From NCBI GenBank assembly GCA_032053185.1, contig DAMBVB010000004.1:77900-141899 (forward strand): a stretch of DNA of 64,000 nucleotides, written 5' to 3'. The first letter of the stretch is position 1; every line of letters begins with the position of its first letter. Origin of the DNA: Lysinibacillus sp. (GTDB lineage Bacteria; Bacillota; Bacilli; Bacillales_A; Planococcaceae). Below, piece after piece: positions 2,755 through 63,980 of this stretch. Below the pieces are notes generated by a model. It was not told where the DNA came from. It worked only from the letters and a program-made list of their open reading frames with translations, and searched no databases. Made by a program: the position numbers and the translations under genes.

Positions 2755-3105
2755 CAATTTTAACTTCTTTCAACAAATGTTTTATGTAGCGAAAGCACCG
2801 CGTCAGCCTACAAATGTTTTATGTAGCGTAAGTGAAACGGCAGTTATAGAAGTCTCCTACCTCTATAGGTGGTGAGATGAATGCGGTTTTAAGTCCCTCT
2901 TTCCAAACATCCGCTGAAATAGAGGAACTCATTCCAAGAACGCCATATTCTGTGGCAATTTATCTCCAAAAACATCTGTTGCTGTCGCTTCGCTTTCGCA
3001 CAAAAAACATCTGTTGCTGTCGCTTCGCTTTCGCACAAAAAAACATTTGCATGCCCTAGCACAAAGCCGTTCCTGGACGCAATTATGCCGATGCACAATT
3101 GATCA
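2755..3105 (-). repeat. Mosaic repeat type B, long composite copy, inverted relative to 1285-1389
   Basis: Read on the minus strand: CAATTGTGCATCGGCATAATTGCGTCCAGGAACGGCTTTGTGCTAGGGCATGC, then 35-bp units, then a hairpin module, then TGAAAGAAGTTAAAA. Confidence 0.85.
2973..3043. repeat. Tandem 35-bp units (2 copies) centred on GCGAAAGCG
   Basis: CATCTGTTGCTGTCGCTTCGCTTTCGCACAAAAAA starts at 2973 and again at 3008, giving a period of 35. Confidence 0.9.
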
Positions 3106-3281
3106 TTACTACAACGGTCTTCTCACAATACTCTATTAACATTCACAAAAAAATCTGCAATACTTTAAGAACTTGAAACCCAATCACTCTCACAAAGCAG
3201 AGTACTGTAAGGATTGGTGGATCAACCGCATAAAGTAAGCAGATTTTAGATTGCTAGTTTGTTTTAAGAAAATGATTCAAA

Positions 3282-5859: not shown

Positions 5860-6834
5860 TCATTCCTGTTCATAATTTTTGGAGAAAGTTTTCGCAAAAT
5901 CTGAGCCAAGCTGAGCATTTATTTGCTTAAAAGCTGCAATTACTGCCCCGCCGATTGGTTGTAAGACTGGTGCCATAAAGTGCAATGGTATCTCGTCCAC
6001 TTGTGCGAATTGCTGTAATTTCGGTAAAAAATATGCTTCATTATTAAAAACGCCACCCACCAATACGACAGGTACGTCCCCTTTCTCCCAAGTCATTTGA
6101 GAGTAACATGCTTTAATCGCCACATAATGTTTCTTGCAGGCGTCCTCAATGATCTGGATAGCAATCCGATCTCCTATTTCCGCCACGTCGAAAACATATT
6201 TACTTAACGGTGCAATCACTGTCCGAGGATGCTCTTCTCCATAAATTCGCTCTATTAATTGTGGTACATTTTTTACAGAAAAATAACGTAATACTACATC
6301 TGTCAATGCTGTTGGGTCTCCTCGCCCATCATAGCTTTGAAAAATAGCCTTCAGCCCTTGAATACCTAAATCATAGCCACTGCCCTCATCATCAAAAAGA
6401 TAACCCCAGCCCCCTACTCTATGAAAATGTTGCTCACGATCGTAGCCCATTGTAATAGCGCCTGTCCCTGCAATTTGCACAATACCTGCCTGCCCAAGTG
6501 TGCCTGCATAAAGTGCAATTAGAGCATCATTATCAACAATCACATATGCTGTATTAGGAACATATTGCCGTACTATCGATTCTACAACTTCTTCTGCCTG
6601 TAGCTCCTTAACTCCAGCCATGCCAGCAAAACAACTATCTATGGCTGCAAATACTTGCGGATTTTGCTGTTGCAAATTTTGTAGTATATCATGAATCGTT
6701 GACTTAAAATATTGAATACCCATAGCTGTTGGGTTACTCCGGGTCGTTACTACTTTAGCATAAACATTGCCCAGTTCATCACAAATGACTGCTGACGTTT
6801 TCGTTCCACCACCGTCAATCGCTAATACATACAT
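5860..6834 (-). CDS. BadF/BadG/BcrA/BcrD-type ATPase, N-acetylglucosamine (or MurNAc) kinase-like
   Basis: 324 aa. The N-terminus MYVLAIDGGGTKT is the ASKHA phosphate-1 motif. Located in an amino-sugar context. Confidence 0.75.
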   Translation of the reverse strand: MYVLAIDGGGTKTSAVICDELGNVYAKVVTTRSNPTAMGIQYFKSTIHDILQNLQQQNPQVFAAIDSCFAGMAGVKELQAEEVVESIVRQYVPNTAYVIVDNDALIALYAGTLGQAGIVQIAGTGAITMGYDREQHFHRVGGWGYLFDDEGSGYDLGIQGLKAIFQSYDGRGDPTALTDVVLRYFSVKNVPQLIERIYGEEHPRTVIAPLSKYVFDVAEIGDRIAIQIIEDACKKHYVAIKACYSQMTWEKGDVPVVLVGGVFNNEAYFLPKLQQFAQVDEIPLHFMAPVLQPIGGAVIAAFKQINAQLGSDFAKTFSKNYEQE

Positions 6835-6894
6835 TTCTCTTTGCTCCTTTCTTCTTCATCCATTTCTCCCTAGCTTAATTGTAGTTGTTACTAC

Positions 6895-7407
6895 AAAAAT
6901 ATTGGTAAATCAAGATTAAAAAGGTTCATCATCAAAAGTTGTGGATGACTTTTGTTAAAACGCCTACTATGCAAATAAGTTGATTGTAGCGGAGACTGGG
7001 CGACTCCTTGGGAATTAGCAATAGAGGAACGAAAGCTAAGAGCATCACATCCTGTGATAACTCCTTCGTGACCAACATCGTGTTGGCCCGAGATCCTGGA
7101 GCGAGCACATAGGGGAACGAAGGCTAAAAGCATCACATCCTGTGATAACTCCTTCGTGACCAACATCGTGTTGGCCCGAGACCCTGGAGCGAGCACATAG
7201 GGGAACGAAGGCTAAAAGCATCACGTCCTGTGATAACGCCTTCGTGACCAACATCCTGTTGCCCCAAGCGGCTCATCGGACGCCCCAGGAAGCTCTGCTC
7301 TGCGCGAAAGCGAAGCGTCTAGCGGCAAATGTTTTATCTGTGCGAAAGCGTCAGCAACAAAGCGCCCAGGCGGAACGGAAATCAACCACACGTTTTGTGA
7401 TGAACCA
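6895..7407 (-). repeat. Mosaic repeat, arm type (type A), full-length copy of about 510 bp
   Basis: Arms are GTTGATTGTAGCGGAGACTGGGCGACTCCTTGGG (left) and GCGCCCAGGCGGAACGGAAATCAAC (right). It contains 88-bp tandem units, CGTCCGATGAGCCGCT (reverse complement) and GCGAAAGCG modules. It is near-colinear with 38318-38745 in the opposite orientation. Confidence 0.9.
7026..7258. repeat. Tandem 88-bp units (2 full + 1 partial)
   Basis: GGAACGAAGGCTAAAAGCATCAC... restarts at 7026, 7114 and 7202. Confidence 0.95.
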
Positions 7408-7450
7408 TAAAAAAGGGATTAAGCACTATCTACTAATGGCTTAATCCCTT
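7408..7450 (-). terminator. Intrinsic terminator after the DUF871 gene
   Basis: Minus strand: AGGGATTAAGC-loop-GCTTAATCCCT followed by TTTTTTAT. Confidence 0.75.
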
Positions 7451-7459
7451 CTTCTGTAA

Positions 7460-8542
7460 TCATTTCGTAAAGCCAAATGATGCCCAAGGCTGAATATGTG
7501 CTAATAAAAATTGCTCTTCTTCTACAACTCTTGCCACAACATTTGTAGATCCGGCATTCGGCATTTCCTTTAAAACAATTTGAAGTTCACCCTTATAACG
7601 TACATCTAAATTATTATCGATTGTCACATCCCCCAATTTTAGCGGATGGCGATCATGTGCAGGGAAGTCACCATTTTTATATTTAACACGAGATTGCGTA
7701 CTACGGATAACATAATCCGAAACATCGCCACGATTAAAATGTGGCTCCTTAAAAAGGATGGCTTCTTCTAAAATAGACGTTTCCATACACTGCTCTACTT
7801 TCAGCTCTAGCTTATGGCGATTTAATTGGCCTAATGCACGTATTTCTTCATCAGAAGCATACATATTGCCGATAATACAATCATCTATTAAACCAGTGTG
7901 CCATAAATCCTTTGCTTGCACAGTAATTGGCAGATGCCGATGCTCTTCTAATGTAGGCAACCCATGCTCGGTTTCTTCCCAAGGTCCGAACTTAGCATGC
8001 TGCGATGAAATCATGGCTGCTGTTCGAAGATGATTTGTTTTAAATTGTTGAGATGTTTGTAAAAAATGTTGACGTGATAGACCTGTGAAACATCTCGGAT
8101 AAAAATTATGACAACCCATTATATTATCTTTATTCGGTTGATAGGATACTATATTTTCTACATACTTAGTACCGTTACTAATATTTAATTCTATTTTTAA
8201 ATTACTGGCATCGAGAGACATAAACGCTTCTTCTTGGCCAGAAAAACCCATATCTAGGCGCAATGCTGCTAAATGATAATGCTCCTTAAAATAACCAATA
8301 TCTTTATACGTTAAGCCTAAATCTTCAAAAACAGCAGGTGCAATATCAGCAGAAATTTCAAAGCCCAGTTGCTGCGCAAATTTATTTATTTGCTGTAATT
8401 TTTGTCGTTCCTGATCGTTATTTAACGACATAAGACATGTAAATATTCGATCAAAACCGTTATCATGAGCGAGCTGAACATACCGCTTCATATCTTCTAA
8501 TGTACTATGCTGAGGATATAGTGAAATCCCTAACCTTCTCAA
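7460..8542 (-). CDS. DUF871 protein (MupG-like 6-phospho-N-acetylmuramidase family)
   Basis: 360 aa. The N-terminus MRRLGISLYPQHSTLEDMKRYVQLAHDNGFDRIFTCL is typical of DUF871. Directly downstream of a PTS EIIC gene. Confidence 0.7.
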   Translation of the reverse strand: MRRLGISLYPQHSTLEDMKRYVQLAHDNGFDRIFTCLMSLNNDQERQKLQQINKFAQQLGFEISADIAPAVFEDLGLTYKDIGYFKEHYHLAALRLDMGFSGQEEAFMSLDASNLKIELNISNGTKYVENIVSYQPNKDNIMGCHNFYPRCFTGLSRQHFLQTSQQFKTNHLRTAAMISSQHAKFGPWEETEHGLPTLEEHRHLPITVQAKDLWHTGLIDDCIIGNMYASDEEIRALGQLNRHKLELKVEQCMETSILEEAILFKEPHFNRGDVSDYVIRSTQSRVKYKNGDFPAHDRHPLKLGDVTIDNNLDVRYKGELQIVLKEMPNAGSTNVVARVVEEEQFLLAHIQPWASFGFTK

Positions 8543-10869: not shown

Positions 10870-11124
10870 CTGCCGCTTTCGCGCAGATAAACAATGCGTT
10901 CGGAATCTGCTTTGTGCTTAGGCCTGCAGATGTTTTTTGTGCGAAAGCGCAGCGACAGCAACAGATGTTTTTTGTGCGAAAGCGCAGCGACAGCAACAGA
11001 TGTTTTTTGTGCGAAAGCGCAGCGACAGCATGATGAGGCCAATACGATGTCGGTCATTTCTGTTCTTAGTCTGTGTTCCCTATTTCAGCGGGTTTTTCGA
11101 CACTTGCTAAAAGAAGTTAAAAAT
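10870..11124 (+). repeat. Mosaic repeat type B, composite copy with three 35-bp units
   Basis: ACAATGCGTTCGGAATCTGCTTTGTGCTTAGGCCTGC aligns with the 3080-3045 linker. The hairpin TTTCAGCGGGTTTTTCGACACTTGCTAAAAGAAGTTAAAAA at the 3' end overlaps the GNAT stop codon. Confidence 0.85.
10927..11030. repeat. Tandem 35-bp units (3 copies) centred on GTGCGAAAGCGC
   Basis: CAGATGTTTTTTGTGCGAAAGCGCAGCGACAGCAA starts at 10927, 10962 and 10997. Confidence 0.95.
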
Positions 11125-15918: not shown

Positions 15919-16060
15919 GCCATAAGGTTCATTTCCGTTCTGACTAGGCGCTTTCTTAGGGGGCAACAGGTGTTTATTGCGAGAAAGCTAGGCGGCAGCA
16001 TCCCAAGGAGTCGCCTAGTATCCCGCTCCAATCAACCTATATAGCATACGTTTCCTCAAT
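15919..16060 (+). repeat. Mosaic repeat type A, short copy (arms plus one module)
   Basis: GGTTCATTTCCGTTCTGACTAGGCGCTTTC ... CCCAAGGAGTCGCCTAGTATCCCGCTCCAATCAACC. Confidence 0.85.
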
Positions 16061-16585: not shown

Positions 16586-16983
16586 AAGCCAAGAATCATT
16601 GTCAATTCTCCCCTACAAATATGCAGTTGTCTTTTTGAATAACCATTTATTCGCACTAAAAAAGGAGCTAATTTTACGCTCCTCTTTGTGCTTATTTACT
16701 ATGTATGACGAATCCCGATTGTGCAGTTATGCCAAGAAACATTCGTTTTGAACCCGCAATTCGCAGGGGGGTGCCCGCTTTGCAGCTTTAAACGTCCCGC
16801 TCCGCGTGGGGCTTGTTTGCGACTACAAAATGAAGGCTCCCGATTCTAAAATGTTCGGTCAAAACTGTTAAGTAGAGCTAGCAATTAGACAAACACTTCA
16901 GGATTCGTATTACAGTTATCATAACATTACCCGTCTGATAATTCAAACTATTTTCTTTTTAAAAATTTAAATTCTTGCGAAAA

Positions 16984-18816: not shown

Positions 18817-18848
18817 TTATTTAATTCCTCCAAAATTTATTTGACTCA

Positions 18849-19035
18849 TCACCATAACTTAGGATTGATTTTTGTTACGACTGGGCGCTTTCCTCGGGAT
18901 GTCCGATGAGCCGCTCTATGGTTTCATCTTTGGCGCTAATCTCGAAGAAGTCGCCCAGTCTCTACTCCAATCAATTATCCACATGACGTCCGTTTTCACA
19001 AAATGTCAGCCCAAACTTTTGGTGAAGAACTTTTT
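18849..19035 (+). repeat. Mosaic repeat type A, short copy inside the hisS-aspS spacer
   Basis: GATTGATTTTTGTTACGACTGGGCGCTTTCC, then TGTCCGATGAGCCGCT, then GAAGTCGCCCAGTCTCTACTCCAATCAATT, plus an extension of about 60 nt homologous to 6895-6975 (reverse complement) and 38680-38745. Confidence 0.85.
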
Positions 19036-20536: not shown

Positions 20537-20795
20537 ATAAAAAAGCTCTCGCCTCCTTGCGTAATGCAAGGGACGAGAGCTGTACAAGCTTCCGCGGTTC
20601 CACCCTAGTTGACGCATCAAATACATGCGTCCTTCTCCTAATCGGATAACGGCCGATTCCGTTTTTTCCTACTAAGCATTACTTTTCAGAAAAAAACCTC
20701 TCAAGTGTTGTTCACAATATACATTTTTGTAGGAAAGATTTCAGCCTAGGTCTTTCCCTCTCTTCTCCAATAGAGGTATATGCTACTTGCTTGGT
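20537..20795 (-). promoter_or_regulatory. T-box leader (tRNA-sensing riboswitch) upstream of hisS
   Basis: The minus strand carries AGAGAGGGAAAG (stem I AG bay) and the T-box core CTAGGGTGGAACCGCGG (plus 20591-20604). A terminator follows: AGCTCTCGTCCCTTGC...GCAAGGAGGCGAGAGCT plus a U-run (plus 20537-20580). Specifier not resolved. Confidence 0.8.
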
Positions 20796-20969
20796 CATAA
20801 GCGGTTAATCATTTTTTGATTACCCTTTATGTTAGTCATAACAAAAGGCAATGTCAACTATTTTTATTTTTTTTACGATACATTCGGTAAAATAATAAAT
20901 TCCATACCTTTTTCCCACGAATTCTATTACAAAAGCATGGTAAAATAGCACAAGAATAGGAGGAATCTG

Positions 20970-35834: not shown

Positions 35835-36861
35835 CGCGGACCCCCACTTCGTTAATATGCTCACTATAAGCAACGACTGCCTCTAATTTTCGGAGTGCAC
35901 GCCCGCTAAAAATACTATCCTTCGCCATTTCTACACCTTCTCTAACGGTTTCAGCAATTCCATAGCTGAACAACCCAATACCAGCATTCAATAAAACTGT
36001 GTCAAAATAAGCACTTTGTTCGCCGGCTAATAATTTACGCATAATTGCTGCGTTTTCATCTGCATTACCTCCACGAATAGCCTCAATTGATGCATAGCTG
36101 AGACCCGCTTCCTCCGCAGTTAATGAAAATGGAATCAAGTCTCCCTTATCTACTAAAACAAAAGTATTTTGACCAGCTAATGACGCCTCATCTAATCCTA
36201 GTGGCCCAGAAACGACCATCGCACGTTCCCGCCCAAGCATTTGTAATACGGATGCGTATTCCATGACAAAATTAGGACGGTTAATGCCTGTAAATTGCGT
36301 CGATAAAGGCACTGGATTCGTAAGAGGACCGACAAGATTAAAAATAGTTGGCGTGCCAAGTGCCCGACGAACCTCACCAATTCGCTTTAATTTCGGATGG
36401 ACATTTGGAGCATACAAAAAGGCGATTCCTTCTTTCGCTAACAGATCCATAGTTTGTTCAATGGAAATATTCGTATGAATACCGAGTGCTTCCAAAACAT
36501 CAGAACTTCCTGATGCCGAAGAAATTTTGCGATTACCGTGCTTCGCCATTTTGACACCAGCCCCCGCTAATACAAAGGCACAAGCTGTACTGATATTAAA
36601 TGTATTAAGACCATCGCCACCAGTACCGCAGTTATCCATATAGATCCCTTCGTTTGCTGGTACATCTAATGCAAACGAACGCATAGTTGTGGCTAATGCC
36701 GCTACTTCATGAGCAGTTTCACCTTTGACAGATAATGCCGTTAAAAAGCTTGCGATTTGTTCTTTTGGTGTGTCATCTTGGAACATCCATGTTGCTGCCT
36801 GTAGCATTTCCTCATACATCAAATGCCCTCGTTGTTGTACTTTTTGACGAATACCTTCCAT
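35818..36861 (-). CDS. trpD: Anthranilate phosphoribosyltransferase
   Basis: 347 aa with CGTGGDG and KHGNRKISSASGSSD motifs. Confidence 0.9.
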   Translation of the reverse strand: MEGIRQKVQQRGHLMYEEMLQAATWMFQDDTPKEQIASFLTALSVKGETAHEVAALATTMRSFALDVPANEGIYMDNCGTGGDGLNTFNISTACAFVLAGAGVKMAKHGNRKISSASGSSDVLEALGIHTNISIEQTMDLLAKEGIAFLYAPNVHPKLKRIGEVRRALGTPTIFNLVGPLTNPVPLSTQFTGINRPNFVMEYASVLQMLGRERAMVVSGPLGLDEASLAGQNTFVLVDKGDLIPFSLTAEEAGLSYASIEAIRGGNADENAAIMRKLLAGEQSAYFDTVLLNAGIGLFSYGIAETVREGVEMAKDSIFSGRALRKLEAVVAYSEHINEVGVRDEYLK

Positions 36862-38231
36862 TAAAGTTGGCCTCCTTCTTTTTCAAGTAGCTGCAAAAAT
36901 TCCTGTTCGTCCTTTTCTACTTGTTTTAAAACTTCCTTAACATTGGTGTATTTGGTCATCGTTACAGTTGATCGCATATGCATCGTTGCATTTTCTATGA
37001 CAATGGCTTTCCCTGTTAATGCAAAATCAAGATGACCGTTAAAGCCAATAAATCCAAGACCTCCTCCAAATATCCCAGCAGTTCGACTAGATTTTTCTAA
37101 ATAGTCCTTTGCCTTATCCTTTGGGATACCTGTTGATGCAAAAGTTGGTAACGTCGCAGCTAATACATCCAGTGCATGAAGCATCGGTAATATTTGACCC
37201 TCGACTCTCGAGGTCATATATAATGCATGCTTTGAACGCTCAATTCTCACTGCCTCAATGACTTGAATGGAATCTCGGAAACATACAGACTGTAGCTCTT
37301 GTTGCACGGCAGAAACAAGTACAGCATGTGACTTCCTAATATTTGTGTTTTCATATAGCTTTCGTTCTTGTTCTAAATCTTCACCTTTTGTGGAACCTCT
37401 AGGCAATGTCCCCTCTGTTGGTGTCGCAATCACACGTTTACCTGTTACTCGAATTAGGCTTTCAGGAGATGTTCCTAAGACAACATGATCCTCAAACTCT
37501 ACATAATACATATAAGGAGCAGGATGTTTTTTACGCAATTGACGATATAAAGCGAAAGCATCACCTTGTAAAGTTGTTAAAAAACGCTTTGATAGAACGA
37601 CTCTTGTCATATCATCTAATGAAGCTTTGATAGCTGTAAGAGAATCTGCAAATTGTTCATTCGTAATCGACTCATATGGTTCATAACTACAAGTTGTATC
37701 CTCATTCTCTCTACCTTTTAAAAGCTGCTCCGCCAACTCTTCTAAATTTGGTTCTTTTTTTTCTGCATCAATATTTGTATGAATCAAAGTAACTTCATCT
37801 GTTACATGATCAAACACAATGACCGTCTCATACACATGAAAATGCACATCTGGTAGCTGTACTTTCGTCTGCTCAGTCGATAATACCGTTGTTGTACCAT
37901 GACCAACATAGCCAACAGCTCCGCCTGAGAATGGGAATCGAGTCGTATTGGATATACGTGGCATTAATCTTTTTAATAAAACAAACATGTCGCCTTTATG
38001 TGTATATGTGTTTCCAGTCTTAGACGAATATTCCTGAATCTCATCTCCAAAGCCTTTATACGTTTTTCTTGGATTAGCGCCGATAAAAGAAAAACGTCCT
38101 GCTCCCTCATGCTGGGCTGAACTCTCCAGTAAAAATTTAAGATTTCCTTGTAGGCGTCTAAAAATTAAAATCGGTGTTAAAGAATCAGCATTAACGGTTT
38201 TCATTTTCGTTCTTGAACTCATCGTTAACAT
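36861..38231 (-). CDS. trpE: Anthranilate synthase component I
   Basis: 456 aa with a chorismate-binding domain. First gene of the operon. No trpG is in the window. Confidence 0.9.
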   Translation of the reverse strand: MLTMSSRTKMKTVNADSLTPILIFRRLQGNLKFLLESSAQHEGAGRFSFIGANPRKTYKGFGDEIQEYSSKTGNTYTHKGDMFVLLKRLMPRISNTTRFPFSGGAVGYVGHGTTTVLSTEQTKVQLPDVHFHVYETVIVFDHVTDEVTLIHTNIDAEKKEPNLEELAEQLLKGRENEDTTCSYEPYESITNEQFADSLTAIKASLDDMTRVVLSKRFLTTLQGDAFALYRQLRKKHPAPYMYYVEFEDHVVLGTSPESLIRVTGKRVIATPTEGTLPRGSTKGEDLEQERKLYENTNIRKSHAVLVSAVQQELQSVCFRDSIQVIEAVRIERSKHALYMTSRVEGQILPMLHALDVLAATLPTFASTGIPKDKAKDYLEKSSRTAGIFGGGLGFIGFNGHLDFALTGKAIVIENATMHMRSTVTMTKYTNVKEVLKQVEKDEQEFLQLLEKEGGQL

Positions 38232-38317
38232 AATACCAAGCTCCTTTTCTTAAAAATCCACTACTGCTTGCCTTACAAATGTTTAGCTGCTAAATCGGTT
38301 CTTGTTGAAAAAAGGAT

Positions 38318-38745
38318 CATTATAGCGTAGGGTTGATTTCCATTCCGGCTGGGCGCTTTGTTGCTGACGCTTCGCTTTCGCACAGATAAAACATTTGCCG
38401 CCGACGCTTCGCTTTCGCGCAGAGCAGAGCTTCCTGGGGGCGTCCGATGAGCCGCTTCACTCGCGTTGCTCGCTCCAGGGTCTCGGGCCAACACGATGTT
38501 GGTCACGAAGGCGTTATCACAGGACGTGATGGTTTTAGCCTTCGTTCCCCTATGTGCTCGCTCCAGGGTCTCGGGCCATTACGAGGTTGGTCACGAAGGC
38601 GTTATCACAGGACGTGATGCTTTTAGCCTCCGTTCCTCTATTGCTAATCCCCAAGGAGTCGCCCAGCCTCCACTCCAATCAACTTATATGCATGGCGTAG
38701 GTTTTAACAAAATGTTACCCCTAATTCCCGATGATGGACAAAAGT
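38318..38745 (+). repeat. Mosaic repeat type A, full-length copy between the trp T-box terminator and trpE
   Basis: GGGTTGATTTCCATTCCGGCTGGGCGCTTTG, then two GCGAAAGCG modules (reverse complement), then GGCGTCCGATGAGCCGCT, then 2 x 88 bp, then CCCCAAGGAGTCGCCCAGCCTCCACTCCAATCAAC plus an extension. Confidence 0.9.
38468..38643. repeat. Tandem 88-bp units (2 copies), reverse complement of the 7026-7258 units
   Basis: GCTCGCTCCAGGGTCTCGGGCCA... restarts at 38468 and 38556. Confidence 0.95.
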
Positions 38746-38786
38746 TTATTAGAAATCATTTGTATGGCATTTTACCAAAGCATGGT

Positions 38787-38897
38787 GTTGTTGATATCTG
38801 TTCCGACTGGGTACTTTCCTGGGGACGTCAGGGAAACAAAATGTTTTCTGTGCATATCGCAGTAACATAGCGGATGTTTATTGTGCGAAAGCGCAGC
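38787..38897 (+). repeat. Second, partial type A element abutting the first
   Basis: GTTGTTGATATCTGTTCCGACTGGGTACTTTCC (arm) ... GGATGTTTATTGTGCGAAAGCGCAGC. Confidence 0.7.
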
Positions 38898-38917
38898 ATT
38901 CATCCCCCTGCAAATAA

Positions 38918-39350
38918 AAACAACAAAAAAAGCCCCCTACAAAAAGGATTTTTCCTAATTGCAGAGGACGATCATGACCGCGTTGCCACCTCATATTAGA
39001 GCATATTTGCTCTCCCTTAAGTGCTCAGCCTTAGTTCGCCAGTTAAATTGACGTATCTTTTGAGTTAATGACAAAAAGATTTATCTAAGTCGTAACACCC
39101 CCTTTAACGTGGGGAATCCGTTCGCTATTATCCATTTCGCCTTGGCGTAACATTCGCCAGAGGCATTGGACCCATAGATGTTTTTTTGTGCGAAAGCGCA
39201 ATGATAACGTACGTCAGCATGCATTTTCGTGACAAAAAACATCTGCTGGATGAAAATAATTAGCGACTCTCATAAGTCCATTCACATAAGCTACAAATCA
39301 GTTTACACCAACCACTGACTCTCTAAATTGCATACTGATGCTACTACTCT
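38918..39350 (-). promoter_or_regulatory. T-box leader with probable Trp (UGG) specifier for the trp operon; unusually long and carrying a repeat insertion
   Basis: The minus strand carries AGUAGUAGC, then AGAGAGUCAGUGGUUGGUGUAAA (stem I), then GAA-UGG-A (plus 39267-39273). The T-box core is AUGAGGUGGCAACGCGG (plus 38977-38990). The terminator is CCUCUGCAA...UUGUAGGGG plus a U-run (plus about 38918-38968). Confidence 0.75.
39174..39246. repeat. Inverted pair of GATGTTTTTTGTGCGAAAGCGC-type modules inside the trp T-box leader
   Basis: ATAGATGTTTTTTTGTGCGAAAGCGC (39174-39199) faces GCATTTTCGTGACAAAAAACATCTGC (39221-39246), giving a stem of about 25 nt. Confidence 0.8.
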
Positions 39351-39566
39351 TATTCAACAATTTCTCAGCTATTCTCATCTAAACTCAGCTCATCTGTTCT
39401 AAGGCTGACCTCGCTCCCGAGACCAACTACCTTGTATCGAACAAAAAAGTTAGTCTTATTCTATGCCAAACAACGATTATTGTCAATCAATTCAGAGAAA
39501 AAGAACAGGCGTTTTGAAATTATATAAAAAGGATAATTCCTCTTTATATATCCCACAAAAAGGAAG

Positions 39567-40100: not shown

Positions 40101-40120
40101 CTTCAATAAAGACATATGAA

Positions 40121-40160
40121 CAATTATACCTTGGCATCATTGCTTCTGAAAGAAGTTAAA
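40121..40160 (+). repeat. Minimal 40-bp type B element (two termini only) overlapping the secDF stop codon
   Basis: CAATTATACCTTGGCATCATTGC followed directly by TTCTGAAAGAAGTTAAA. Confidence 0.75.
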
Positions 40161-54265: not shown

Positions 54266-54339
54266 TAAGGTTTGATTTTATTGGTGGGGTTGATTTCTGT
54301 TCCGAGCGGGCGCTTTCCTAGGGCGTCCGATGAGCCATT
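54266..54339 (+). repeat. Half type A element (one arm plus the CGTCCGATGAGCC module) in the pheB-pheA spacer
   Basis: GGGGTTGATTTCTGTTCCGAGCGGGCGCTTTCCTAGGGCGTCCGATGAGCCATTC. No second arm follows. Confidence 0.8.
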
Positions 54340-54590
54340 CAAATTTTTATTAATGTAAAAATTTAGAATTTTTAGTTTCTGAAAACTTCTTTTAAAATTA
54401 TACATCAAATGTAGGGAAGGCATAATATGAAGCTTCCTAACGACTCTTTATGACGTTCTATCCATTACTTTTCTTTCTATGAATATTCTCTTTTGTTATA
54501 GAATAAGGAGCTGTCCCATGAAGCGATATCATCACACCACATGGGACTGCTCCTTTTGAGCTTATTGATATTCAAGCTTACTTTCCGTCA

Positions 54591-56962: not shown

Positions 56963-57065
56963 AATCAATTATGCCTCGGCATGATTGTAGCTGACGCTAC
57001 AGAAAATAATTGTAGCTGACGCTTCGCTTTCGCTACAGAAAATAATTGCTGAAAGAAGTTATAAT
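56963..57065 (+). repeat. Mosaic repeat type B copy between the rpmA terminator and spo0B
   Basis: CAATCAATTATGCCTCGGCATGATTG, then 2 x TAGCTGACGC(TTCGCTTTCGC)TACAGAAAATAATTG, then CTGAAAGAAGTTATAAT. Confidence 0.85.
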
Positions 57066-57071
57066 TTAGCC

Positions 57072-58106: not shown

Positions 58107-58240
58107 TTTACTGCACCTCCTCTTAGACTCAGACTCGCCTGTTTATAAAGGTGATCCTACGATACTTAAACCTTTCCAGTGCGGTTGTAGTAGCACAGGT
58201 GCTACAAACAATAACATTAAAATATTACCACACGATTTTT
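58107..58240 (-). promoter_or_regulatory. Probable L21 ribosomal-protein leader upstream of rplU
   Basis: This 134-nt structured untranslated region lies between the spoIVFB stop and rplU, where Bacilli carry the L21 leader. I have not verified the motif base by base. Confidence 0.35.
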
Positions 58241-63454: not shown

Positions 63455-63890
63455 ATTGTGTACTCCCTTTCTATTTAAGCCATACTTTCATTGACATCAA
63501 CTTACACCCCGGCGCACTATATCCCGAGGCTTTATCTTCATTCACTCGATGTTGGACACCTTCTGAAAAAAACTACATACTCATTTATCTCACACCTGAT
63601 GGAGTGAGAGTCTTTTTCTGAACGAAAATAAAATCATACCGTTCATTATAACGGAAAAACGCAAGAATTAGTAGTGTCACATACCTCTTCTTGCGGAAAA
63701 GATACTATTTTAATTCCCTCCTAAACAAAAATAGTACGTATAGATTAGCATATAATTTTTATTCTTGTAAGACAACGTGTAGCAGGCCACCAATTTTTGT
63801 AAATATAATAGATATTTCTACGAATACAATAACGTTTTCTATAAAAAAAGGTTCGCTTTTTTTTAGCTGCTCGCAAAACATATTTATTTA

Positions 63891-63980
63891 TCAATGATAC
63901 CTTGGCATAATTGCGTACGGAATCGGCTGGAGGCTTTAACTTCTTTCAGCAGGTGTTTGGATACCCGCTGAAAAAGCAAC
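63891..63980 (+). repeat. Mosaic repeat type B copy upstream of the mreB region
   Basis: TCAATGATACCTTGGCATAATTGCGTACGGAATCGG, then CTTTAACTTCTTTCAGCAGGTGT-TTGG-ATACCCGCTGAAAAAGC. Confidence 0.85.

Follow-up and report, generated by a model that had tools for sequence, protein, structure and literature searches.

A miniature transposable element related to ISL3-family insertion sequences as the probable vehicle of Bacillaceae-1 hairpin arrays in Lysinibacillus

A stretch of 64,000 nucleotides from a Lysinibacillus sp. genome (contig DAMBVB010000004.1, positions 77,900 to 141,899; hereafter the window) contains two loci, A and B, in which an 88-bp double hairpin is repeated in tandem. Both loci are very probably copies of a MITE (a non-autonomous miniature inverted-repeat transposable element) of Lysinibacillus that derives from an insertion sequence (IS) of the ISL3 family, is BOX-like in its organization and carries arrays of the Bacillaceae-1 RNA motif. 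The units belong to the Rfam family of that name, the terminal inverted repeats (TIRs) are held in common with a transposase-encoding IS, insertion is accompanied by 8-bp target duplications, and an orthologous site is empty. The order of the modules is fixed and their number variable in approximately 38 copies from many Lysinibacillus species, and with respect to genes the copies are randomly oriented. The hairpin unit had been described before, and its Lysinibacillus vehicle is a new MITE of a familiar type.

Tandem Repeats Finder reports a period-88 array at each locus, covering 7017-7265 in locus A (score 435; 2.8 copies with 94% matches) and 38466-38645 in locus B (2.1 copies, 91% matches), and a repeat finder recognizes 6950-7195 and 38467-38712 as the two halves of an inverted repeat, 246 nt long and with 91% complementarity. 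The loci are colinear in further blocks as well, in the connector CGTCCGATGAGCCGCT, in the GCGAAAGCG modules and in the second arm, so that in each an arm is followed by n x 88 bp, CGTCCGATGAGCCGCT, GCGAAAGCG modules and another arm. From the inverted repeat and the colinear blocks together it follows that the loci are colinear copies in opposite orientation, with three units in A and two in B. A preliminary description of the window had proposed just such opposite-strand elements with exact 88-bp arrays, and on this point the tandem-repeat and inverted-repeat searches agree with it.

Rfam already lists the double hairpin, as each unit matches its family Bacillaceae-1 (RF01690). The matches, three on the + strand and two on the - strand, score 60.7-74.8 bits (E 1e-8 to 6e-12) with a gathering threshold of 35 bits, and all five span model positions 1-67 of 67:

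7020-7086, + strand: Bacillaceae-1 unit 1 (RF01690, 64.5 bits)
7108-7174, + strand: Bacillaceae-1 unit 2 (RF01690, 66.3 bits)
7196-7262, + strand: Bacillaceae-1 unit 3 (RF01690, 73.9 bits)
38488-38554, - strand: Bacillaceae-1 unit of element B (RF01690, 74.8 bits)
38576-38642, - strand: Bacillaceae-1 unit of element B (RF01690, 60.7 bits)

The 88-bp unit consists of the 67-nt Bacillaceae-1 core and a 21-nt tail or linker, CCGAGACCCTGGAGCGAGCAC, and the nested stems and second hairpin predicted earlier for each unit correspond to P1/P1b and hairpin 2 of the Rfam model. The loop of hairpin 1 reads AUCCU or GUCCU in all five window units; that of hairpin 2 reads AUCCU in one, AUCGU in three and the variant CUCGU in the fifth. 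Folding, which had been suggested as a check, returns the expected hairpins for single units on either strand (z -1.6 to -2.5 relative to shuffles). The stability above shuffles is modest, and whole-element folds, in which the arms pair, reach only -1.2 to -2.8; given these unimpressive z-scores we do not claim a global RNA fold. Differences between the two loci had been thought to fall in loops or bulges and to spare the stems, which holds for two of the three, located in a loop or internal loop; the remaining one, ACGAAGGAGTT versus ACGAAGGCGTT (AACTCC versus AACGCC on the Rfam strand), affects the innermost pair of the outer stem P1, where cmscan flags a non-canonical pair. B. subtilis has eight Bacillaceae-1 copies, which are unannotated.

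Element A extends beyond its arms and is bounded by outer inverted repeats (GGYTCATCAYCAAAA...TTTTGRTGATGARCC; TIRs GGTTCATCATCAAAA ... TTTTGTGATGAACC). Its extent, 6923-7406, is set by an alignment that puts the insertion exactly after the terminator of the neighboring mupG-like gene, between ATTAAAAA and ATAAAAAA. The parts of the element and its surroundings are as follows:

6923-7406, + strand (the Rfam strand): element A, complete MITE of 484 bp with three Bacillaceae-1 units and two GCGAAAGCG modules
6915-6922, no strand assigned: left copy of the target-site duplication, ATTAAAAA, matching ATAAAAAA at 7407-7414
7407-7414, no strand assigned: right copy of the target-site duplication, ATAAAAAA, within the T-tail of the - strand mupG terminator
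6923-6952, + strand: TIR and subterminal region GGTTCATCATCAAAAGTTGTGGATGAC, homologous to the right inverted repeat (IRR) end of the ISL3-family IS
6976-7019, + strand: arm 5', GTTGATT-GTAGCGGAGA-CTGGGCG-ACTCCTTGGG-AATTAGC
7262-7292, + strand: connector CCCCAAGCGGCTCATCGGACGCCCCAGGAAG, pairing with arm 5' (GATTAGC/GCTCATC and CCTTGGG/CCCAGG)
7293-7349, + strand: two GCGAAAGCG modules, with cores at 7304-7312 and 7342-7350
7350-7386, + strand: arm 3', AAAGCGCCCAG-GCGGAACGGAA-ATCAAC
7381-7406, + strand: right TIR ATCAACCACACGTTTTGTGATGAACC, homologous to the left inverted repeat (IRL) end of the IS
7460-8542, - strand: mupG-like gene, on one side of locus A
5860-6834, - strand: BadF-type N-acetylglucosamine kinase gene, on the other side of locus A

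As noticed at the outset, the arms are inverted only in part: GTTGATT/AATCAAC and CTGGGCG/CGCCCAG pair, and the decamers between them do not. The protein-recognized terminus that this pattern brought to mind was a sound suspicion, but the arms are not the termini, the real ends being the outer IS-like inverted repeats. Similarly, what had been taken for a conserved extension past the second arm is in fact the terminal inverted repeat, and the elements end at 6923-7406 and 38314-38740.

On its Rfam strand element A is antisense to both flanking genes. Exact matches to the proteins of the flanking genes occur only in the window's own contig and in broken short-read contigs. Protein similarity assigns the source to Lysinibacillus (93% to Lysinibacillus sp. 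RC46, 90% to L. xylanilyticus), and the window has a match in a JGI metagenome contig. The spacer between mupG and the kinase gene, 625 bp long in the window, has 157, 240, 172 and 68 bp in L124-L127, Lysinibacillus relatives compared here as orthologues at 73-93% identity and not as strains of the same species; in the alignment, element A is absent from the orthologous spacer in all four. The empty sites of L124-L126 read ...CCCTTTTT(T)ATCTT... once, after the conserved mupG terminator. This terminator (7415-7458, - strand; stem GGGATTAAGC/GCTTAATCCC, 14-nt loop, TTTTTTAT tail), whose long loop caused the terminator scan to overlook it, is conserved in the four relatives and provided, with its T-tail, the target into which element A inserted.

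Evidence for a parent element comes from Lysinibacillus sp. FJAT-14745 (L045), where the same two ends bound an element of ~1.4 kb with a perfect 8-bp duplication, CAATTTAT, and an assembly gap as its interior. A metagenome scan with the subterminal 20-mer of this element recovered an intact IS of 1317 bp (L128), which has a 397-aa open reading frame (ORF) with the domains DDE_Tnp_ISL3 (PF01610, E 2.4e-48) and HTH_Tnp_ISL3 (PF13542). IS and MITE can be aligned at both ends, the IRL alignment covering ~26 nt (GGCTCATCACCATAACKTGGGGTTGA) and the IRR alignment ~30 nt (GGCTCATCACCAAAA....GGATGACA). Direct repeats of 8 bp are typical of the ISL3 family. In 16 Lysinibacillus copies with both ends recognizable, the flanking 7-mers match at a mean of 5.19 positions, a value that none of 500 shuffles equaled, versus 4.16 +/- 0.26 for shuffled pairings; seven of these copies, where 1.6 are expected, agree at six or more of the seven positions. 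Perfect duplications of 8-9 bp are present in L116, L121, L080 and L060:1206. It is the combination of outer inverted repeats shared with an ISL3-family IS and an 8-bp target duplication that identifies the element as a MITE.

The elements are small (427-484 bp) and non-coding, and the ORFs that run through the repeats are spurious. Those of 56-134 aa that cross the arrays (6891-7196 on the - strand and 38466-38870 on the + strand) were rejected as repeat artefacts. At L001 (3391-3591) a metagenome gene caller did annotate a 66-aa array ORF, which illustrates the risk of mis-annotation as protein. A search of plasmid and phage collections with the whole element and the IS ends gave no match, and the MITE family appears to be chromosomal.

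The organization of the family was read from 38 complete Lysinibacillus copies, by mapping pieces of the window with blastn onto 120 loci that a degenerate Bacillaceae-1 pattern had retrieved from many Bacillaceae genera (one genome per species). All Lysinibacillus units sampled have one and the same frame around them: TIR, arm 5', units, connector, modules, arm 3' and TIR. The consensus TIRs are GGCTCATCACCAAAAGTT ... ACGTTATGGTGATGAGCC, with the left outer repeat continuing as GGCTCATCACCAAAAGTT..GATGAC; the consensus of arm 5' is GTTGATT-GGAGTGGAGG-CTGGGCG-ACTCCTTGGGG-ATCAGC, that of the connector AAGCGGCTCATCGGACGCCCCCAGGAAG and that of arm 3' AAAGCGCCCAG-YCGGAACGGAA-ATCAAC. Within this fixed order the counts vary, from one to three units and from zero to at least six GCGAAAGCG modules of 37 nt, in line with the earlier view of a modular repeat of arm, n x unit and arm with changing copy number. 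Comparison of unit number, also proposed then, gave the stated one to three units, and none in frame-only relatives such as 18843-19031 of the window and L086; a minimal copy of 75 bp in L060 retains little beyond the two ends.

The helices of the arms hardly vary; a few double compensatory changes are seen, CTGGGTG/CACCCAG in three loci and C-G to T-A, G-C to A-T and G-C to C-G once each. In a diverged subfamily (L045) all three arm helices are kept with different sequences. The unpaired arm decamers are conserved in sequence. In the 38 loci each strand of the arm internal loop (6983-6995 and 7368-7380 in element A) bears, on the Rfam strand, a direct motif of the GGAnnGGA type, with consensus GGAGTGGAGG (GTAGCGGAGA in element A) and CGGAACGGAAA; as both unpaired loop strands bear it, GGA motifs are exposed somewhere on each strand of the element. 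In the Lysinibacillus unit the inner stem, CATCAC/GTGAT, resembles the TIR core CTCATCACC.

Two further arrangements were seen among Lysinibacillus genomes. Reversed GCGAAAGCG-type modules recur inside hairpin 2 of the unit (CCAACATC|...AAAACATC|TGTTGG) in MITE copies at L036, L088, L059, L123, L116, L067, L080, L056, L068, L049 and L110; ACATC is common to the junctions and points to the two repeat families having recombined at short homology. In Lysinibacillus sp. LZ02 (L097, 250-700), at least four tandem 124-nt dimers of two different Bacillaceae-1-type units, with no linker and no ISL3-type frame, lie directly downstream of a groEL-like 3' end.

Element B sits between a T-box leader and trpE, with its Rfam strand on the gene strand, and the window holds additional, mostly incomplete members of the family:

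38314-38740, - strand: element B, MITE of 427 bp with two Bacillaceae-1 units, two GCGAAAGCG modules and degenerate TIRs
36861-38231, - strand: trpE
38961-39366, - strand: T-box leader (Rfam)
38788-38905, - strand: partial member, arm 3' and modules, directly upstream of element B
18843-19031, - strand: frame-only member with both TIRs, both arms and connector, no Bacillaceae-1 unit and no modules
15925-16040, - strand: degenerate frame member with both arms and one GCGAAAGC-like module
54287-54340, - strand: truncated member, arm 3' and connector only

In three relatives (L131-L133) the element at this locus is variable or absent. At the trpE-leader site, L. xylanilyticus has the same frame and the same 3' flank with units and modules both absent, in an L. 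agricola-like genome the element is reduced to its 3' half, and L. parviboronicapiens has no element. Element B and a close paralogue in L060 are set apart by exactly one 88-bp unit plus a two-module block of 73 bp; the paralogue was considered as an orthologue of locus B as well and dropped in that role, its downstream flank being different.

The trpE T-box leader has itself received an insert of ~122 bp (39133-39254, - strand), located between GAGAGTCGCTAATTAT and AATAGCGAACGG, which is a copy of a second repeat family and consists of a GCGAAAGCG module and a CCTCTGGCGAATGTTACGCCAAGGCGAAATGGAT arm. It is missing in the L. agricola-like genome, a different copy occupies the same point in L. 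xylanilyticus, and the T-box with its insert still scores above threshold (102.8 bits). Further stretches of this second interspersed family, with arms ATCAATTATGCCTTGGCATAATTGCGTCCAGA, are at 1302-1333, 2756-3108, 10927-11121, 40119-40150, 56964-57066 and 63885-63976, and include perfect tandem 35-bp modules, CAGATGTTTTTTGTGCGAAAGCGCAGCGACAGCAA, in 2.1 copies at 2968-3042 and three copies at 10927-11031. The GCGAAAGCG module type is common to this family and the Bacillaceae-1 MITE. Other Rfam matches in the window are 6S RNA (16708-16907, - strand), a second T-box leader (20566-20807, - strand) and an L21 leader (58121-58196, - strand), and the set of 6S RNA, T-box and L21 leader fits a conserved Bacillaceae chromosomal region.

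Whether the hairpins matter in themselves is a separate question from how they spread. The covariation check proposed in the preliminary description gave a strong signal across genera for the unit and a signal that is present but sparse for the arms. In 128 unique units from the 120 loci, pair 13-47 is AT in 80, CG in 27 and TA in 14, and pair 26-38 is CG in 59, TA in 56 and GC in 7. As the stems covary across genera, the hairpins are under a selection that predates the Lysinibacillus MITE. In five other genera, 130-330 bp of repeat around the core is common to the copies of one genome; TIRs were looked for at the ends of this shared repeat and none were seen. The 21-nt tail of Lysinibacillus resembles a shortened form of the CTCGAG...CTGGAGC module of other genera. 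A different mosaic, with the modules AAAAGCGCAAGCGCC, GACCTCGAGGGGCTAGGCGCTGGAGCTGGAC and AATTTTATAGTTTCCTTAAC, surrounds the motif in Lentibacillus, Oceanobacillus, Lederbergia, B. infantis and a B. subtilis-labelled genome (L008, L011, L071, L077, L037, L104, L106, L047, L079, L087, L099, L082 and L103). The 190-bp repeat of B. subtilis (Kunst et al., 1997) may be the B. subtilis form of this mosaic, a suspicion on which a literature search found nothing.

The surroundings of the units give little sign of a dedicated transcript. Over 100 scorable instances the orientation with respect to neighboring ORFs is random (34 ++, 35 --, 17 +- and 14 -+), and consensus scans found no convincing sigma-70-type promoter or intrinsic terminator inside either element. 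A TTGTTA-N16-TATAAG sequence precedes arm 5' in many copies and was rejected because its -10 is weak, lacking the conserved final T. Random orientation and the lack of a consensus promoter and terminator argue both against a dedicated role in 5' untranslated regions and against a self-contained small RNA (sRNA) gene.

Several observations weigh against the MITE as a full account of the two loci. A tblastn comparison of the ISL3 transposase with the window gave no match, and the window contains no transposase gene; mobilization by an ISL3 enzyme is suggested by the likeness of the TIRs and by that likeness only. In element B the TIRs are degenerate and the target duplication is ambiguous (CTTTT versus TTTTT). 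The covariation of the unit stems shows that the hairpins are selected for themselves, which a purely selfish DNA repeat fails to explain. Other genera carry Bacillaceae-1 in different repeated flanks without these TIRs, so that the MITE is to be seen as a lineage-specific vehicle, which does not explain the motif. Finally, the promoter scan was limited to the sigma-70 consensus.

Among other explanations, the one that fares best holds that the reverse complement is the functional strand, with its CAGGAYG loops as CsrA sites and the arrays as CsrB-like sponges or cis-acting CsrA sites; we consider it rather improbable. The reverse complement of Bacillaceae-1 does fit the motif to which CsrA binds, and the discoverers of the family were unsure of the strand (Gardner and Eldai, 2015). 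A strand test on the 128 unique units, restricted to the pairs left free by the search pattern, found mismatches that would be G.U on the reverse strand in 43 sequences (29 genus-level events) and mismatches that would be G.U on the Rfam strand in 16 (15 events), and in element A the reverse strand is co-oriented with the flanking genes. The wobble bias toward the reverse strand is only ~2:1, however, a lean that is not decisive, and it is gone when hairpin 2 is taken alone (19 versus 15). GGA is present on the reverse strand of hairpin 1 in five of five window units and of hairpin 2 in one of five: the other four hairpin 2 loops (three ATCGTG, one CTCGTA) are without UCCU, and hence without GGA on the opposite strand. 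With respect to transcription, element B has the opposite orientation, and the sigma-70 consensus scan found no promoter. In B. subtilis, moreover, CsrA is antagonized by a protein, FliW.

A second alternative takes each locus as a set of independent genes for trans-acting sRNAs, with the arms as promoter and terminator and the copy number tuning dosage. It follows the original account of Bacillaceae-1 as a likely trans-acting RNA without an assigned function, found in many gene contexts and with RUCCU loops that hint at a homodimeric protein partner (Weinberg et al., 2010; PMC2864571). The cross-genus stem covariation and the weak TTGTTA-N16-TATAAG ahead of arm 5' would agree with such genes, but the consensus scans and the missing final T of TATAAG do not, TIRs, 8-bp duplications and empty sites mark arrival by transposition, and the same frame occurs with zero units. 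This alternative is unlikely, more so than the preceding one.

The loci could also be repeats of the repetitive extragenic palindrome (REP) or bacterial interspersed mosaic element (BIME) type, extragenic palindromes spread by a REP-associated tyrosine transposase (RAYT, IS200/IS605-like) that recognizes DNA hairpins. They are hairpin-rich, intergenic, mosaic, found in both orientations and placed beside terminators, but their termini match a DDE element of the ISL3 family, 8-bp duplications are not made by transposition of the IS200/IS605 type, and a short palindrome tagged with GTAG/CGTC was not seen, which makes this origin very improbable. Just as hard to credit is a dedicated cis-regulator, a trp operon leader at locus B or an intercistronic mupG-kinase processing site at locus A: the positions of element B between the T-box terminator and the trpE start and of element A between co-oriented genes would suit it, but orthologous sites of close relatives are without the units or the whole element, and the orientation is opposite at the two loci and random across the 100 instances.

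Thus, we favor the ISL3-derived MITE, for which the following course of events may be proposed. The element is a long imperfect palindrome, with the outer TIRs followed by two partly complementary arms, one to three tandem 88-bp units at the apex and zero to at least six GCGAAAGCG modules in the 3' flank. An ISL3 transposase would bind the TIRs and mobilize the element, presumably in trans, and insertion into A/T-rich targets such as terminator T-tails could account for the distribution. Slipped-strand mispairing, or recombination or gene conversion between copies, might shift the number of units and modules. The Bacillaceae-1 hairpins would be an older, structure-constrained cargo, active, if at all, under read-through transcription from neighboring genes; such read-through would copy out the Rfam strand within the leader from T-box to trpE and, downstream of mupG, the reverse strand, and hairpins in such transcripts could be protein-binding or RNA-stabilizing structures.

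A bolder proposal, which we put forward tentatively as a possible if doubtful one, is that Bacillaceae-1, which ranks with the most abundant of Rfam's orphan "sRNA" families, may nowhere be a classical sRNA gene and may be a structure-constrained module of dispersed mosaic repeats across the Bacillaceae, captured in Lysinibacillus by the ISL3-type MITE that now spreads it; the activity under selection would lie on the reverse strand, as AGGA hairpins that bind CsrA or ribosomes. Behind it stand the 130-330 bp repeats in five genera and the ~2:1 wobble bias, neither of them decisive. If true, AGGA hairpins would be delivered into host transcripts, and transposition would rewire post-transcriptional control.

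We found no literature linking Bacillaceae-1 or Lysinibacillus to a MITE of this kind. Its description as transposon cargo would explain why, in Lysinibacillus at least, an orphan Rfam family is so numerous and occurs in so many gene contexts, and it advises caution, as an Rfam match to Bacillaceae-1 does not warrant annotation as an independent sRNA gene. The 0.7-kb insertion between a T-box riboswitch and trpE and the insertion in a terminator tail offer natural contexts for tests, and the variable number of units could serve as a marker for strain typing.

Compared with Bacillaceae-1 as described in Rfam, the window units have the nested P1/P1b, the second hairpin, the RUCCU loop of hairpin 1 and the upstream AGGA, and are likewise multi-copy, intergenic and found in diverse gene contexts. 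They differ in their tandem repetition with a 21-nt tail, in a hairpin 2 loop that is mostly AUCGU and not AUCCU, and in lying always inside a TIR-bounded frame, whereas the family description is silent on embedding in transposable elements. With the parent IS (L128, L045) the window elements have 26-30 nt at each end in common; unlike it they are without transposase, the interior being replaced by the palindromic frame and the RNA-motif cargo. Repeated hairpins with a conserved loop motif, and reverse-strand loops A/CAGGAYG that resemble CsrA sites, recall CsrB/RsmZ; in contrast to these RNAs, the window elements have no dedicated promoter or terminator by consensus scan, are randomly oriented and lack GGA in most hairpin 2 loops.

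In the B. cereus group, the group-A bcr repeat bcr1 is mobile and duplicates a TTTAT target (Okstad, 2004; Klevan, 2007; Kristoffersen, 2011). Like the family described here, bcr1 and other group-A bcr repeats are chromosomal repeats of the Bacillaceae lineage, of ~150 bp and larger, with hallmarks of mobility and A/T-rich duplicated targets; closely related strains do not share their distribution, and compensatory changes have maintained a cruciform-like structure of two hairpins. The direct repeats of bcr1 are of 5 bp and it has no identified parent IS, in contrast to the 8-bp duplications, ISL3-type TIRs and modular interior found here, and sequence similarity between bcr1 and the MITE family was not detected.

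The closest architectural parallel is pneumococcal BOX, organized as boxA-boxB(n)-boxC (Martin, 1992; Croucher, 2011; PMC3049150). Both are composite interspersed repeats in which two mutually pairing arms surround a variable tandem array of a self-folding module; in both the copy number varies between strains, the TIRs resemble those of a resident IS, and the elements are intergenic and transcribed by read-through, as reported for BOX (Croucher, 2011; PMC3049150). They differ in host family, in parent IS (ISL3-type here), in module length (88 bp versus 45 bp), in the conservation of the present module in many genera outside the element, and in target duplications, clear at 8 bp here and with none clear at pneumococcal repeat insertions (Croucher, 2011; PMC3049150). 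As the host belongs to a different order and the resemblance is one of architecture only, the BOX consensus sequences being left uncompared, we do not file the family as BOX. It may rather be regarded as a Gram-positive counterpart of BOX whose parent IS can be identified, whose target duplications are clear and for which empty sites exist, and the availability of these three makes both its mobilization and the effects of hairpin arrays on neighboring genes experimentally tractable.

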